Source: Clostridia bacterium
GTDB taxonomy: Bacteria > Bacillota > Clostridia > TANB77 > CAG-465
Reading direction: 5' to 3'
Assembly (NCBI GenBank): GCA_045659265.1
Contig: JAZOWO010000135.1
Span: 1-39,276, forward strand
DNA length: 39,276 bases
Part shown: positions 16,543-20,774 of the stretch, in pieces
Layout: every line of letters begins with the position of its first letter
Position numbering within the stretch: the first letter of the stretch is position 1
Position numbers and translations under genes: made by a program
The notes under the pieces: model-generated
What the model was told of the DNA's origin: nothing
Database searches by the model: none
What the model saw: only the letters and a program-made list of their open reading frames with translations

Positions 16543-16989
16543 ATGAAAGTATTAGCAACAAATAGAGAATTAAACTTTAAATATGAAGTGCTAGAAACAT
16601 ATACATGCGGAATTGAACTAAAAGGTACTGAAGTTAAATCTGTAAGACAAGCAAAAGTAAATTTAAAAGATGGATTTGCACTTATAGAAAAAGGTGAAGT
16701 TTGGCTTAAGAATGTATATATTGCACATTATGAACAAGGAAATAGAAACAATGTAGATGAGATGAGAAATAGAAAACTTCTTATGCATAAAGAGGAAATC
16801 TCAAGACTTTTAGGAAAAGTAACACAAGGAGGTTTTACACTTGTTCCATATAAAATGGGATTTGAACACGGATATGTTAAAGTAGAACTTGCTCTATGTA
16901 AAGGTAAAAAACTATATGATAAACGCGAAAGTATAAAAGAAAGAGATGCTAAACTTAAAATTGCACAAGCAATGAAGAATAACATATAG
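16543..16989 (+). CDS. smpB: SsrA-binding protein
   Basis: GIELKGTEVKSVR, RKLLMHKEEI, KGKKLYDKRE. Confidence 0.97.
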   Translation: MKVLATNRELNFKYEVLETYTCGIELKGTEVKSVRQAKVNLKDGFALIEKGEVWLKNVYIAHYEQGNRNNVDEMRNRKLLMHKEEISRLLGKVTQGGFTLVPYKMGFEHGYVKVELALCKGKKLYDKRESIKERDAKLKIAQAMKNNI

Positions 16990-17000
16990 GATGTAAATAT

Positions 17001-17852
17001 ATGATGAAAAGATTTAGAAAGATATATGTAGAAATAACAAATATTTGTAATATGCATTGTAGCTTTTGCCCTGAAACAAGTAGGGCAAAGGCTTTTATGC
17101 CTAAAGATAAATTTGAGCATATTGCAAAAGAAATAGTAAAGTATACGGACTATGTATATTTACATGTAAAGGGTGAACCTTTAATACATAAGGAACTGGA
17201 AGATATACTTAACATTTGTAATAAATATGGTCTTAAGATAAACATATCTACAAATGGTACAATGTTAGAGAACAAAAAAGATATAATAAAAAGTGCTAAT
17301 ATACGTCAATTAAATTTATCTTTGCATAGTTTTGAGAAGGATGAAAATACTAGCGCAGAAGAACTAGAAAGGCTAAATAATTACATAGAAAATGTAGTTA
17401 GTATTTCTAACGAATTAGCAGACAATGGCACAATAATTAGATATAAACTATGGAATCAAACAAAGAGTTCTAATAAAGAAATATTGGAGTACTTAGAAAA
17501 AGTATATGGTGTGAATCTTGTAAACGAACCATATGAAAGAGATAAAAAGTTAAGAGAAAATGTTTTCTTAAGTATAAAAACACCTTTTGAATGGCCAGAC
17601 TTAAAGAAAGAAAAAGAGAATGAAAAAGGAACATGTTATGGACTTAAAGCGCAAATAGCAATACTTGTAGATGGAACTGTAGTGCCATGTTGTGTAGATA
17701 ACAACGGAGATATTCCTTTAGGGAATATATTTAATGATTCTTTAGAAAATATATTAAATAGCAAAAGAGCACAAGATATTATACAAGGCTTTAAGGACAA
17801 TAAATGTGTTGAAGAACTTTGTAAAAAATGTGAGTATAGGGATAGTATATAG
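17001..17852 (+). CDS. Radical SAM protein with SPASM/twitch domain
   Basis: EITNICNMHCSFC, KGEPL, STNG, C-terminal C...DGTVVPCC...LGN...CKKC. Confidence 0.9.
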   Translation: MMKRFRKIYVEITNICNMHCSFCPETSRAKAFMPKDKFEHIAKEIVKYTDYVYLHVKGEPLIHKELEDILNICNKYGLKINISTNGTMLENKKDIIKSANIRQLNLSLHSFEKDENTSAEELERLNNYIENVVSISNELADNGTIIRYKLWNQTKSSNKEILEYLEKVYGVNLVNEPYERDKKLRENVFLSIKTPFEWPDLKKEKENEKGTCYGLKAQIAILVDGTVVPCCVDNNGDIPLGNIFNDSLENILNSKRAQDIIQGFKDNKCVEELCKKCEYRDSI

Positions 17853-17861
17853 AGGTGTAAA

Positions 17862-18341
17862 ATGAAACTGTTAAAAAAGATTTTAAGTATACTGTTAACA
17901 TTAGTGGCGGGGTGGTGCATAATAGTAGTAGCTTTAGCACTTGTTTTTCTTCTTATAATATGGCTTCTACAAATAACTGGTGGTAACAATGGTCCTAAAC
18001 ATGGCTATTACAAAAAAGAAGAGTTTTGGGATAAAGAGGGATTTCAAGATTTTACGGATTACTGTAAATATTATTACGAAGATAAGTATGACGCAAAGTT
18101 TGCTGAAGATGAAAAATATAGCAAAGTAGAAGAAGAGGATATACCAAAAGTATTAGAATACTTTGAAGAATTTGAACATTGGATGTTGCCCAAAAGAGCA
18201 AATGAATATGATTTTGATAAAAGTCAAATAACGATAGGAGATTATGTTCGAATAGAAGGCAAAGGTAAAGATATATCTTTTAATGTGTATCTTTATGATA
18301 TAGAAACGAATATATTATACTATATACATAATAACATTTAA
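17862..18341 (+). CDS. Hypothetical membrane-anchored protein
   Basis: RBS GAGGT; long N-terminal hydrophobic segment; C-terminal YLYDIETNILYY. Confidence 0.65.
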   Translation: MKLLKKILSILLTLVAGWCIIVVALALVFLLIIWLLQITGGNNGPKHGYYKKEEFWDKEGFQDFTDYCKYYYEDKYDAKFAEDEKYSKVEEEDIPKVLEYFEEFEHWMLPKRANEYDFDKSQITIGDYVRIEGKGKDISFNVYLYDIETNILYYIHNNI

Positions 18342-18353
18342 TGTGTATAATTA

Positions 18354-18370
18354 TGTCGAAATGTGTCGAT
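18354..18370 (+). promoter_or_regulatory. Tandem Spo0A-box-like sites
   Basis: TGTCGAA (18354-18360) and TGTCGAT (18364-18370); 0A-box consensus is TGNCGAA. Confidence 0.4.
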
Positions 18371-18399
18371 GAAAACCTTGAAAAATAAAGGATTTTGTA

Positions 18400-18428
18400 T
18401 TGACAAGTGTAGTGAGGTAAGGTATAAT
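18400..18428 (+). promoter_or_regulatory. Consensus SigA promoter of the type III TA operon
   Basis: TTGACA-N17-TATAAT ending 15 nt before the first repeat. Confidence 0.85.
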
Positions 18429-18442
18429 TTAAGTACATTAAA

Positions 18443-18607
18443 ATTCGGTTAGGAACGAGCCGTTAGATTAAGTTCTATAAACGAGTTCCCTGAAATCATT
18501 CGGTTAGGAGCGAGCCGTTGAGTTAATCTCATAAACGAGCTCCCTATAATACATTCGGTTAGAAACGAGCCGTTAGATTAAGTTCTATAAACGAGTTTCC
18601 TGAAAAA
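18443..18607 (+). ncRNA. Type III TA antitoxin RNA array (ToxI-like), 3 x 55 nt
   Basis: Tandem repeats at 18443, 18498 and 18553 with a predicted pseudoknot, lying between a promoter and a terminator upstream of a ToxN-like gene. Confidence 0.9.
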
Positions 18608-18612
18608 TTTAA

Positions 18613-18655
18613 TAGGGGGATACTTATATTTATATAAGTGTCTCCCTACTTTTTT
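18613..18655 (+). terminator. Intra-operon terminator between antitoxin array and toxin
   Basis: TAGGGGGATACTTATA-TTTA-TATAAGTGTCTCCCTA-CTTTTTT. Confidence 0.85.
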
Positions 18656-18674
18656 GACTACCAGGAGGAAATAT

Positions 18675-19211
18675 ATGAGAGAAATAAGAAAAAGTAAGGT
18701 TGAAAATTTAGAGTTTTATATAGTAAAGGAGGAGTATATAAAGTTTTTGAGTAAATATGATTCGCATATTGCATATAATAAAGAGGAACATCGACCGTAT
18801 GTTGGAGTAGTATTAGAAATAGAAGATAAAAAGTACTTTGCACCTTTATCTTCACCAAAGGAACAGCATAAGAAATACAAAGAGAATTTTACGTTTTTCA
18901 AACTTGAAAATAACAATAAAGAGCTGGGTATTATTAGATTTGCGGACATGCTTCCTGTGCCAATAGAATGTTTGAGTAAAATGGATTATTGCAAAAAGAG
19001 TTATGGCTATAGAAGATTACTTTCTGAACAATATACACAAATAAACATAACAAAAAATAAAGAACGTATTAAAGAAAAGGCAAAACAAATATATGATATA
19101 GTAACAAGCAATAGTTGTACAGCTAAAGCAAGATTTTATAAACAACTTAGTTGCAATTATAGCTTTCTTGAAGAAAAATGCGAAGAGTATCGAAAAATGT
19201 ATTTAACTTGA
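18675..19211 (+). CDS. toxN: Type III TA endoribonuclease toxin, ToxN/AbiQ family
   Basis: FYIVKEEYIKFL, RPYVGVVL, YFAPLSSPK, LGIIRFADMLPVP; ATG 18675 behind AGGAGG; repeat-terminator-toxin architecture. Confidence 0.88.
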   Translation: MREIRKSKVENLEFYIVKEEYIKFLSKYDSHIAYNKEEHRPYVGVVLEIEDKKYFAPLSSPKEQHKKYKENFTFFKLENNNKELGIIRFADMLPVPIECLSKMDYCKKSYGYRRLLSEQYTQINITKNKERIKEKAKQIYDIVTSNSCTAKARFYKQLSCNYSFLEEKCEEYRKMYLT

Positions 19212-19340
19212 CATAACAAAAACCGTAGTGTATAATTCTATCGGCAGATTTGGAGCTATCTAACATAATTGTTAGATAGGAATTACTAGGGAAAACTATT
19301 TATATATATATTAATTAATAAGACAAAAGGAGACATATAG

Positions 19341-20774
19341 ATGAAAAGGTATGATTTAATCGTTGTAGGCGCAGGGCCTTCCGGAATCTTCCTTTGCTAC
19401 GAACTCATGAAAAGAAAACCGGATTCAAAGGTTCTCTTGATTGATCAAGGTAGACGGGTAGAGAAAAGAGTATGCCCTGTGGCAAGTGGAGGTAAGTGCG
19501 TAAAGTGCAAACCGTTTTGCCATATCACAAATGGTTTTTCGGGTGCAGGAGCGTTCTCAGATGGAAAACTGAGTCTTTACGACCATGAGGATGAAGAAAT
19601 CCGCGTTGGTGGTTCGGTACAAGAGTATCTTGGTGTGGAATATACCAAAGAACTCATAGACTATACAGACAGCATTTATCTGGATTTTGGTGCAGATACG
19701 AGGCTTGAGGGTGTATCTGATGAAGATACAATTAACGCATACAAAGAACGAGCAAGAAAGTATGGCGTTGACCTTATTTCTATTCCTATCAGACACTTGG
19801 GAACGGAAAAGTCTCATGAACTGTATAAGGCTATGCAGGATGAACTCGAAAGACTCGGCGTAGAAATCCTTATGGAAACTGTAGTAGAAGACCTTATGGT
19901 AAAGGAAGGTGTGGTAACTGGTGTTATGACACACAGCTCTAACTTGGATACCTTTAAGGAAACCTACTATGGTGACAAGGTCGTTATTGCTGTGGGTCGT
20001 AAAGGCGCCAAGTGGCTCTCTGAGATGTGTGCAAAGCACGGTATCAAAAACAGATCTGGTGTCGTAGACATCGGTATCCGTTATGAGCTTCCTGACCACA
20101 TTATGGCTGAGGTAAACAAGGCTATGTATGAGGCTAAGTTTGTTGCAAGACCTAAGCCGTATGAAGACAAGGTAAGAACGTTTTGCCAGAATCCTAGCGG
20201 ATTTGTATCAGCAGAGGTATATGATGGTGGACTTACGCTTGTTAACGGACATTCGTACAAAGAGAAGAAGAGCAACAACACCAATCTTGCCATTCTCTGT
20301 TCACATCATTTCAGTTATCCATTTGACCAACCACTTCTTTATGGAAGAAACATTGCCAAAAACTCCAATCTGCTGGCAAATGGACAGGTACTGGTACAAA
20401 GACTTGGGGATATCTTAAGTGGTCACAGAACACATGAGTACTGGCTTAAGAAAAACAGTGTAGATCCTACACTTAAGACTGCGGTCGCGGGTGATGTGAC
20501 ACAAGCTTTGGGCTACAGAACTATGACCAACATTTTGGAGTTCATCCGTATGGTGGACAATGTTGTTCCTGGTTTTGCAAGCTCAGACAATCTCCTTTAT
20601 TCGCCGGAAATCAAATTCTATTCCAATGAGATTATCATTGATAGTAATTTTGAAACTAGCGTAAAGGGTCTGTATTCTATTGGAGATGGCGGTGGACTTA
20701 CGCGCGGACTAATGCAAGCATCCATTTCTGGAGTGCATCTTGCACGAGTTCTCGCTAAGGATATCGAGTCTTAA
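19341..20774 (+). CDS. NAD(P)/FAD-dependent oxidoreductase with an N-terminal Cys cluster
   Basis: VVGAGPSG Rossmann motif, CP..CVKCKPFC, GAGAFSDGK, RTFCQNP, GDGGGLTRG; promoter TTGACA-N17-TATAAT at 19208-19236; double hairpin terminator at 20783-20835. Confidence 0.88.
   Translation: MKRYDLIVVGAGPSGIFLCYELMKRKPDSKVLLIDQGRRVEKRVCPVASGGKCVKCKPFCHITNGFSGAGAFSDGKLSLYDHEDEEIRVGGSVQEYLGVEYTKELIDYTDSIYLDFGADTRLEGVSDEDTINAYKERARKYGVDLISIPIRHLGTEKSHELYKAMQDELERLGVEILMETVVEDLMVKEGVVTGVMTHSSNLDTFKETYYGDKVVIAVGRKGAKWLSEMCAKHGIKNRSGVVDIGIRYELPDHIMAEVNKAMYEAKFVARPKPYEDKVRTFCQNPSGFVSAEVYDGGLTLVNGHSYKEKKSNNTNLAILCSHHFSYPFDQPLLYGRNIAKNSNLLANGQVLVQRLGDILSGHRTHEYWLKKNSVDPTLKTAVAGDVTQALGYRTMTNILEFIRMVDNVVPGFASSDNLLYSPEIKFYSNEIIIDSNFETSVKGLYSIGDGGGLTRGLMQASISGVHLARVLAKDIES

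Follow-up and report, generated by a model that had tools for sequence, protein, structure and literature searches.

Organisation of the locus

A compact locus at 18400-19211 of the window, by which we mean the whole 39,276-nucleotide (nt) stretch of contig JAZOWO010000135.1 from a Clostridia bacterium (assembly GCA_045659265.1), consists of a promoter, three tandem 55-nt repeats, an intrinsic terminator and a gene similar to those of the ToxN/AbiQ toxins (Table 1). An initial annotation had proposed that it represents a toxin-antitoxin system of type III whose repeats fold into a pseudoknot with an extra hairpin. All four parts lie where it had placed them, and the stems, here called S1, S2 and S3, read from the sequence exactly as claimed, unit by unit. 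We argue that the locus is very probably a chromosomal type III toxin-antitoxin module of the ToxIN (ToxN/AbiQ) family with an enlarged antitoxin RNA, which is the best explanation of the evidence below.

Judging from the promoter spacing, transcription probably starts near 18435, and the predicted leader ahead of unit 1 is only ~8-10 nt long. Tandem Repeats Finder (TRF) reports an array at 18443-18605 with a period of 55, 2.9 copies and a score of 240. The spacing of the units is exactly 55, since the CGGTT of S1 begins at 18446, 18501 and 18556; in unit 2 a hairpin loop shorter by 1 nt is offset by a linker longer by 1 nt. S1 of the window units contains one G.U pair. No open reading frame (ORF) of at least 40 aa on the forward strand overlaps the repeats. 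The stem of the terminator ends 26 nt before the ATG of the toxin gene and was recovered too in an RNA fold prediction of the region. In 1.2 kb, one terminator-like site was found against 0.3 expected in shuffles, and the homologous loci that were inspected have a terminator at the equivalent place. Matches of the terminator to miRNA-like Rfam families were dismissed as chance.

Table 1. Features of the module and of its surroundings (positions in the window)
Feature	Position	Strand	Remark
Sigma-70-type promoter, TTGACA-17 nt-TATAAT	18400..18428	+	consensus match 12/12
Antitoxin unit 1	18443..18497	+	covariance model 55.2 bits
Unit 1 S1	18446-18450/18458-18462	+	CGGTT/AGCCG
Unit 1 S2 (pseudoknot)	18452-18456/18485-18489	+	GGAAC/GTTCC
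Unit 1 S3 hairpin	18464-18467/18474-18477	+	TAGA/TCTA
Unit 1 conserved TAAACGA	18478-18484	+
Unit 1 A-rich tail	18490-18497	+
Antitoxin unit 2	18498..18552	+	covariance model 57.4 bits
Unit 2 S1	18501-18505/18513-18517	+	CGGTT/AGCCG
Unit 2 S2	18507-18511/18539-18543	+	GGAGC/GCTCC
Unit 2 S3	18519-18522/18528-18531	+	TGAG/CTCA
Unit 2 tail	18544-18552	+
Antitoxin unit 3	18553..18608	+	covariance model 62.7 bits
Unit 3 S1	18556-18560/18568-18572	+	CGGTT/AGCCG
Unit 3 S2	18562-18566/18595-18599	+	GAAAC/GTTTC
Unit 3 S3	18574-18577/18584-18587	+	TAGA/TCTA
Unit 3 tail	18600-18608	+
Intrinsic terminator, 16-pair stem (18613-18648) and T run	18613..18655	+	between array and toxin gene
Ribosome-binding site (RBS) AGGAGG	18663..18668	+	6 nt 5' of ATG; read directly
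toxN-like gene, 178 aa	18675..19211	+	ATG 18675, stop 19209-19211
Predicted membrane ORF, 159 aa	17862..18341	+	no Pfam match
SmpB-like ORF	16543-16989		upstream neighbour; recognised by eye
Radical SAM/SPASM protein gene	17001-17852		upstream neighbour; Pfam
Second promoter	19208-19236		12/12
10-bp hairpin with TAAT loop	19256-19279		in 5' untranslated region of oxidoreductase gene
Flavin adenine dinucleotide (FAD)-dependent oxidoreductase gene	19341-20774

A toxin of the ToxN/AbiQ family

The predicted toxin matches the Pfam family ToxN_toxin (PF13958) over the full model (1-159 of 159) with an expect value (E) of 2e-41 and 142 bits against a cut-off of 25, and ToxN is the sole Pfam family matched. 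AbiQ is the best PADLOC model (1.6e-44). Among proteins of known structure, the toxin matches the ToxN of Bacillus thuringiensis (4ATO, 2.6e-23), of E. coli (7D8O, 1.6e-17) and of P. atrosepticum (2XD0, 5.7e-17), as well as AbiQ (4GLK, 1e-12), the nearest solved relative being 4ATO at 33% identity. These matches agree with the type III identity first proposed. Sequence matches outside ToxN/AbiQ are all weak (PADLOC REase_II, E 6e-4; four PDB chains, E 0.017-0.2).

An AlphaFold model built from a 33-sequence alignment has a mean predicted local distance difference test score of 89.8, with residues 1-7 disordered. The predicted fold agrees with 4ATO, 2XD0, 7D8O and 4GLK at template modelling (TM) scores of 0.75-0.84, and a Foldseek comparison with 4ATO gives E 3e-13 and TM scores of 0.80/0.84. 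CptN and MazF trail far behind, CptN (4RMO) being a distant fold match with E 3.5e-4 and a TM score of 0.59. Membership in the cptIN or tenpIN families was rejected, as the sequence matches are essentially to ToxN/AbiQ and CptN is a distant fold match only.

The active site of P. atrosepticum ToxN is given in Goeders 2016 (PMC5086642) as Tyr29, Lys33, Thr52, Ser53 and Lys55. In the alignment, S59, S60 and K62 of the window toxin correspond to T52, S53 and K55, and R40 to K33; Tyr29 falls in an alignment gap. S60, K62 and R40 are invariant in the 33 aligned homologues, and S60-P61-K62 aligns with S53-P54-K55 as the SPK motif.

Homologous arrays

Of 401 sampled genomes of the bacterial order, 144 have ToxN homologues, often several per genome, and ToxN-like genes occur in 5 of 12 other genomes of the genus. 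The nearest relative, in genome G084 of the same genus, has a toxin of 72% identity and three units of 53-54 nt. Twenty-two further loci (L004-L025), with toxins 50-58% identical, have three units each, of 42-59 nt. An exact 20-mer from unit 3 of the sister clade retrieved 87 more stretches (L043-L129), nearly all from metagenome-assembled genomes of uncultured Clostridia. Fifty-one distinct arrays with three units defined by regular expression gave 153 units, 129 of them distinct, and the clade is spread over dozens of uncultured gut Clostridia species.

A covariance model (CM R1) that was built from homologous units and includes S2 and S3 recovered the three units of the window and nothing else when run on the 1.39-Mb genome (E 2e-8 to 6e-7). 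Over 49 sources it gave 71 hits, every one of them in the window or in 23 long-class loci, that is, loci with units of this kind; it gave 237 hits in the 87 pattern loci, none in 25 other ToxN loci and none in 19 decoy loci with a chance 18-base core. The window-type core pattern occurs in 11 stretches of genome contigs, of which one is a true array (L036, the G084 relative) and the other ten, with one match each, no toxin and no CM hit, were discarded; of the 131 pattern matches from a single-toxin search of genome contigs none was confirmed; and nine single matches in metagenome contigs were all rejected as chance, with no CM hit. The pattern scans of viral contigs gave no match, and neither did a blastn search of the array against a phage collection, so that no phage-borne antitoxin mimic was found with these queries. 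The toxin matched four phage records, all at ≤35.5% identity, and 208 plasmid records, all below 60% and ≤39.2% among the 15 matches listed. In these searches of phages, plasmids and viral contigs, no close relative of the toxin or of the array was found.

Most of these arrays escape TRF. With the settings used, it reported an array of period 54-56 in 3 distinct loci of 25 distinct long-class upstream regions (L002-L025 and L027, with the duplicate pairs L001/L002, L006/L007 and L003/L036), and among L004-L025 it reported one only (L024), the units being too unlike one another. Surveys may undercount type III systems because tandem-repeat finders miss most arrays of this kind.

Covariation supports a pseudoknot with an inserted hairpin

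Each unit can be read as 5' AUU, the 5' strand of S1 (5 bp), 0-1 nt, the 5' strand of S2, 1 nt, the 3' strand of S1, U, the S3 hairpin, UAAAC(G/A)A, the 3' strand of S2 and an A-rich linker of 11-13 nt. The loop of S1 has 7 nt and pairs with the downstream strand as the 5-bp S2, and S3, of 3-6 bp and without conserved sequence, occupies the beginning of loop 3. An A-rich loop 3, together with loops 1 and 2 as short as 0-1 nt, is what suits an H-type pseudoknot with stacked stems.

The initial annotation had noticed compensatory changes among the three window units. Across the first 50 alignment columns of these units 12 columns differ, of which ten make up five compensated pairs (two in S2, three in S3) and the remaining two are a hairpin-loop indel, with none in other unpaired columns. 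The same is seen on a far larger scale in alignment A1, a structure-blind MAFFT alignment of the 129 distinct units from 51 distinct arrays, where S1 is formed by columns 4-8 with 16-20, S2 by 10-14 with 46-50 and S3 by 22-25 with 35-38. In the three helices together 95.9% of 1762 cells form standard pairs, against 83.8 +/- 0.5% after column shuffling (none of 500 shuffles reaches the observed value) and 24.4-53.7% when the 3' partners are slid by 1-3 columns. The three-stem fold thus holds in the homologous arrays.

The helices differ in how they vary. S2 shows changes on both sides at all five pairs, with variants GCAC/GUGC, ACAC/GUGU, GUAC/GUAC, UCAC/GUGA, GAUAU/AUAUC and AAUAU/AUAUU in addition to GAAAC/GUUUC, GGAAC/GUUCC and GGAGC/GCUCC. 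For S3, both-sided changes occur at three of four pairs, and the hairpin is present in 129/129 units. S1 changes on both sides at one of its five pairs (the closing pair, A-U/C-G), while the fourth pair varies between U.G, U-A and C-G. S1 pairs in 99% of cells, and the crossing of S1 and S2 is supported by 97-99% of cells paired. Units missed by the regular expression add the S1 variants TGGTT/AGCCA, AGGAT/ATCCT and GGGTT/AGCCT, with U-A and G.U at the closing pair and a change from U-A to A-U at the fourth. Conservation in A1 is highest at unpaired positions, which fits contacts with protein or tertiary contacts.

It is conceivable that the repeats are the antitoxin but act through another fold, either a nested one, with the 5' end paired to the linker and S1 unformed, or one in which S3 is a neutral insertion devoid of function. 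The minimum-energy fold of units 1 and 3 in ViennaRNA does pair UUCGG with CUGAA instead of forming S1, single units reach only modest Z-scores (-1.7 to -2.2), and S3 has no conserved sequence or length. However, the cells that can pair in the nested helix amount to 52.8%, which does not exceed shuffles or shifts, and the helix is impossible in unit 2, so that these pair counts led us to reject the ViennaRNA fold. The near-complete pairing of S1, whose closing pair appears as A-U, C-G, U-A and G.U, and the covarying S3 in every unit likewise argue against another fold, which we consider improbable. The covariation supports the three-stem fold instead, in which each 55-nt unit would form an H-type pseudoknot with the extra hairpin S3.

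With units of 55 nt (42-59 nt in relatives) and a third helix, the array stands outside the subclass of 34-36-nt, two-helix ToxI. Only this subclass is excluded, not the toxIN family, because the family ranges from 31 to 62 nt (Blower 2012).

The form of S3 depends on the unit. In the sister clade, S3 of unit 2 is usually a 6-bp stem with a GNRA tetraloop (GCGA, GAAA, GUGA or GCAA), and S3 of units 1 and 3 in A1 has short stems and U/A-rich loops.

Three non-identical units in a fixed order

Never more than three units were found in the 117 loci. An nhmmer search gave three units in 91 loci, two in 14, one in 7 and none in 5; in five of the two-unit loci (L004, L045, L057, L108 and L122) a divergent unit 1 was still found by the CM, and in L067, L125 and L127 the CM too reports two units. 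Across species of the sister clade, identity is 84-91% between units that share a position and 52-74% between units that do not. The non-identical monomers described initially are thus real and position-specific. The three units resemble one another far more closely in the window and in G084, where each is nearest to unit 3 of the sister clade; S2 nonetheless differs from unit to unit and is conserved by position between these two species (GGAAC, GGAGC, GAAAC). Heterogeneity of units is not new in itself, because short-unit relatives and tenpI have non-identical units too; what is notable is the fixed order with three distinct pseudoknots.

Why three non-identical units are kept in a fixed order is a further question. 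The array could represent a defined trio of distinct antitoxin RNAs and not a redundant repeat, an idea that we put forward as speculative and rather unlikely as a whole. If it held, a transcript would supply units 1, 2 and 3 once each, and these would join three toxin molecules in one closed, ordered hetero-ring, so that each transcript would make one complex. Mispairing between neighbouring units of the precursor would be prevented by their distinct S2 helices, and the basic N-terminal tail that is specific to toxins of the clade would hold S3. Such a complex would have a ring geometry, or a handle for degradation or phage sensing, unlike that of the solved 34-36-nt ToxIN triangles.

Short-unit relatives and the origin of the long unit

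Twenty further ToxN loci of the same order (best tblastn identities 34-45% among those listed) were compared with the long class. TRF reports repeats of 33-40 nt (~2-4.4 copies) in 14 of these loci; for L130 and L146 it gives nothing but periods of 21 and 30 nt, which are spurious. Units were identified by eye in L130, L138, L142 and L149, and in L146 no array was seen in a stretch that ends at the contig end. L029-L031 have three 36-nt repeats each. The short units share the AUU-AGG start, the crossing topology of S1 and S2 and the linker length (11-13 nt) with the long ones, and they covary as well: AGG/CCU with CCCU/AGGG becomes CGG/CCG with CCCC/GGGG in L030. Their S1 has 3-4 bp against 5 bp in long units, and they have no S3. 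The arrays of L029-L031 and L130-L148 comprise about three units that are often non-identical and show compensated changes in S2.

A 40-nt class, AGGU-loop-AGCCU-UAUAAAU-S2', has AGCCU-UAUAAAU in common with the long class. Since this class corresponds to the long unit without S3, the 55-nt unit is best read as a classical ToxI-type knot in which a hairpin was inserted where loop 3 begins and the stems became slightly longer. In a quick maximum-likelihood tree of 71 toxins, the 46 long-class rows form one group (SH-aLRT 87), which stands beside 36/40-nt and 33-35-nt groups; two more rows in the long-class group are one at a contig edge and one with units missed by the regular expression.

The toxins differ along with the RNA. 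A basic N-terminal extension, residues 1-11 in the window toxin, is present as ~6-8 additional residues (MKxxKKxKxxKL) in 21/21 aligned long-class toxins, and most of them, the window's included, have two short insertions in the C-terminal helices, the second of which is one residue longer in L045. Both traits are found in 0/12 short-unit relatives. As the long class is one clade, the tail and the long unit count as one correlated event and not as statistics. The basic tail may contact S3.

In L029-L031 (genomes G095, G347 and G159), the ToxN homologues, 43-45% identical, carry a fused C-terminal extension of ~180 aa; one ORF has 359 aa, and the open frames have 380-393 aa.

Proposed mechanism

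We propose that the strong constitutive promoter transcribes the three tandem antitoxin units, and that the terminator would stop most transcripts and let a minority read through into the toxin gene. It would thereby set the ratio of antitoxin to toxin transcripts, by analogy with the systems treated in Blower 2012 (PMC3401426). The toxin, as an endoribonuclease, would be expected to cut the precursor in the A-rich linkers, as related toxins do at AA/AU, A/AAAA and A/AAA (sites given in Goeders 2016, PMC5086642). A cut at A/A(U/C) is what we infer ourselves; A-A-U or A-A-C is present in every linker and after the leader. Each freed unit could then keep single-stranded 5' and 3' tails and bind two toxin molecules head to tail, giving an inactive protein-RNA ring, and the solved ToxIN complexes are 3:3 rings (Goeders 2016; Manikandan 2022). 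If the supply of antitoxin failed, as might happen under phage shut-off of transcription in the host, the labile RNA would be lost and the toxin set free to degrade RNA, with abortive infection or addiction as the outcome (discussed for the family in Blower 2012 and Goeders 2016). For processing, ring assembly, toxicity and the role in phage defence alike, the proposal follows studied relatives by analogy.

Several points weigh against this proposal or parts of it. The cut sites and the stoichiometry are guesses. The residue equivalent to Thr52 is Ser (S59) in the window toxin and Phe or Tyr in many relatives, and as this position varies, the catalytic assignment is one by alignment only. S1 is backed by few independent compensatory events, and independent events in S2 are far below the cell counts, because many of the changes are inherited differences between unit classes. 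Loci L043-L129 were found with a 20-mer of unit 3, which fixes S1 and the 5' strand of S2 of that unit there; for this reason the pairs were recounted on 63 units from loci found by protein similarity only, of which 98.7% of cells are paired with the same per-helix picture. An Rfam scan of 18000-19500 (E up to 10) gave no match on the repeats, and the fold has no curated precedent for comparison. Contigs of the public run X2, which match the window at ~98% identity and have an intact array, lack one base at 18743; this would shift the toxin frame at about codon 23, so that the toxin is dispensable in this closely related strain. Finally, a 182-nt RNA-library contig (X1), the sole such contig touching the locus, covers 18553-18609; as it continues into unlike sequence, it belongs to a relative and cannot prove transcription at the window locus.

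Persistence of arrays and genomic setting

All intact long-class toxins with upstream sequence (L003-L025) have an array (23/23), and L028, the single toxin that lacks one, is a pseudogene interrupted by three stops. By a rough count, ~29 of the 87 RNA-pattern arrays have no toxin hit or an ORF below 160 aa, and six more are cut by contig ends. Arrays thus outlast toxins and not the reverse, which is the asymmetry predicted for an antitoxin-toxin pair. Among the orphan or remnant arrays (L051, L058, L072, L079, L082, L083, L092, L105 and others), one to three units and a terminator remain; the toxin gene was deleted, replaced or shortened, and some of these arrays are a single unit 3 right after the stop of another gene.

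The persistence of arrays also bears on whether the repeats might be a cis-acting leader or attenuator of toxin translation or transcription and not an antitoxin acting in trans. They do lie in a 5' untranslated region that ends in a terminator. Yet the units are tandem and modular, their survival after loss of the toxin is unexpected of a pure leader, and the layout has every feature by which Blower 2012 (PMC3401426) defines type III systems in the parts relevant here. For toxIN these are a ToxN-homologous toxin and a tandem repeat array upstream of a terminator, with an upstream promoter as a preferred, not a strict, feature; the window has all of them. A purely cis-acting role is therefore highly improbable.

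The locus is accessory. A 1.35-kb indel (17862-19206) comprises the 159-aa membrane ORF and the toxIN module, as seen by comparing the window with loci L152-L155, L160 and L161: four genomes of the same genus have an empty site with flanks 88-91% identical, and G084 shares the insertion. At the empty sites the terminator of the radical-SAM gene lies ~25 nt before the promoter of the downstream oxidoreductase gene. We rejected the membrane ORF as a third component of the system, since it stands beside the module only in this genome (G000) and in G084. No other defence genes adjoin the module, whose neighbours are of the housekeeping type.

A genuine ToxIN-type module might still serve a role other than defence, as a selfish addiction or stabilisation cassette or as a decaying module that persists only because prior loss of the antitoxin would kill the cell. 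The missing or truncated toxins beside homologous arrays (~29/87), the frameshift at 18743 in a near-identical strain, the simple indel between housekeeping genes with no defence genes alongside, and the report that B. thuringiensis ToxIN promotes plasmid retention (PMC4615649) all speak for such a role. Against it, the promoter, terminator, RBS, ORF and conserved putative active-site residues of the window are all intact, ToxIN of P. atrosepticum and AbiQ act in abortive infection (as described in Goeders 2016, PMC5086642), and the occurrence of ToxN homologues in 144/401 genomes, often several in each, fits a defence-type turnover. A non-defence role is possible, though we do not think it probable.

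Comparison with known systems

The characterised ToxI and antiQ units are 36, 34 and 35 nt long and the monomer length in the family is called "quite conserved" in Goeders 2016 (PMC5086642), which bears out the ~34-36 nt given in the initial annotation. The three solved complexes of the ToxIN family that were found (2XDB/2XDD, 4ATO and 7D8O) have units of 36, 34 and 36 nt, the first two lengths being those in the same review. The remark of the initial annotation that surveys had seen longer repeat classes also holds, as Table 2 of Blower 2012 (PMC3401426) gives toxIN repeats of 31-62 nt, and because of this table long toxIN units as such were already known. Candidate RNAs upstream of ToxN in Clostridiales and Leptotrichia (HMP2_3156, HMP2_5421 and HMP2_14852) are reported in Fremin & Bhatt 2021 (PMC8040213). 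In a full-text literature search, we found no description of a three-helix ToxI fold, of its covariation or of ordered non-identical ToxIN units, and the supplements of Blower 2012 and of Fremin & Bhatt 2021 could list members of the clade.

ToxIN of the B. thuringiensis plasmid pAW63 (4ATO; 34-nt ToxI x 2.9) resembles the window module in the order of promoter, about three repeats, terminator and toxin, in its Firmicute host and in an A-rich cut site (A/AAAA in Goeders 2016), which is predicted here. The window module differs in its unit of 55 nt against 34, in the extra loop-3 hairpin and longer S1 and S2, in the basic N-terminal extension and two short C-terminal-helix insertions of its toxin, and in being chromosomal and not plasmid-borne.

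The unit of E. coli ToxIN (7D8O) is 36 nt, as is that of P. atrosepticum (2XDB/2XDD), with 5.5 copies and a triangular 3:3 ring. These systems share with ours the toxin family, the fold, the SPK motif and a pseudoknot antitoxin with single-stranded tails, and the A-A-U or A-A-C of the linkers resembles the AA/AU site of P. atrosepticum ToxN. Their repeats are near-identical and one suffices, whereas here three non-identical, position-specific units occur, each 19 nt longer. L. lactis AbiQ/antiQ (4GLK; 35 nt x 2.8) likewise has about three repeats, and S59 here stands at the ToxN Thr52 position like Ser51 of AbiQ (Goeders 2016); the longer unit and expanded fold set the window module apart, and an anti-phage role has been shown for AbiQ only.

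Long units and few repeats are also found in TenpIN (cryo-EM structure of 2026, PMC13682666) and CptIN (4RMO), with repeats of 39-57 and 40-48 nt (ranges in Blower 2012, PMC3401426, Table 2) and 2:2 rings, and the tenpI repeats are described as non-identical and functional (PMC13682666). In these systems, however, the toxin family differs and the arrays have two units against three here.

With each RNA repeat half again longer than the studied examples, the clade suggests how an RNA antitoxin can grow: a helix was inserted in loop 3 and the tails and pseudoknot core were kept, and the toxin changed alongside the RNA by gaining its basic N-terminal tail and helix insertions. The natural size series of 33-36, 40 and 52-59 nt could be used to ask how the size of the RNA sets the geometry of the ring, and it bears on toxin-antitoxin specificity among several ToxIN paralogues in one genome.

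Further features of the surroundings

The second promoter downstream of the module (Table 1) starts in the last codons of the toxin, whose stop TGA lies within its -35 TTGACA. It belongs to the oxidoreductase gene, since it is present in the empty sites.

Sister-clade loci such as L008 and L012 have a conserved 5' leader hairpin, TTGATAAAnnAATTTATCAA, in front of unit 1 and ~45 nt behind the -10 box. Short-unit relatives have leader hairpins of a similar type. The window and G084 are without one, and in both unit 1 begins ~8-10 nt downstream of the predicted transcription start. An inverted motif of the type TTCACTTAGTGTAC / TTCACCGAGTGAAC flanks arrays upstream in L008 and downstream in L071, L079 and L093; in L071 and L093 it takes the place of the terminator and toxin, and it may be the end of a mobile element or an operator.

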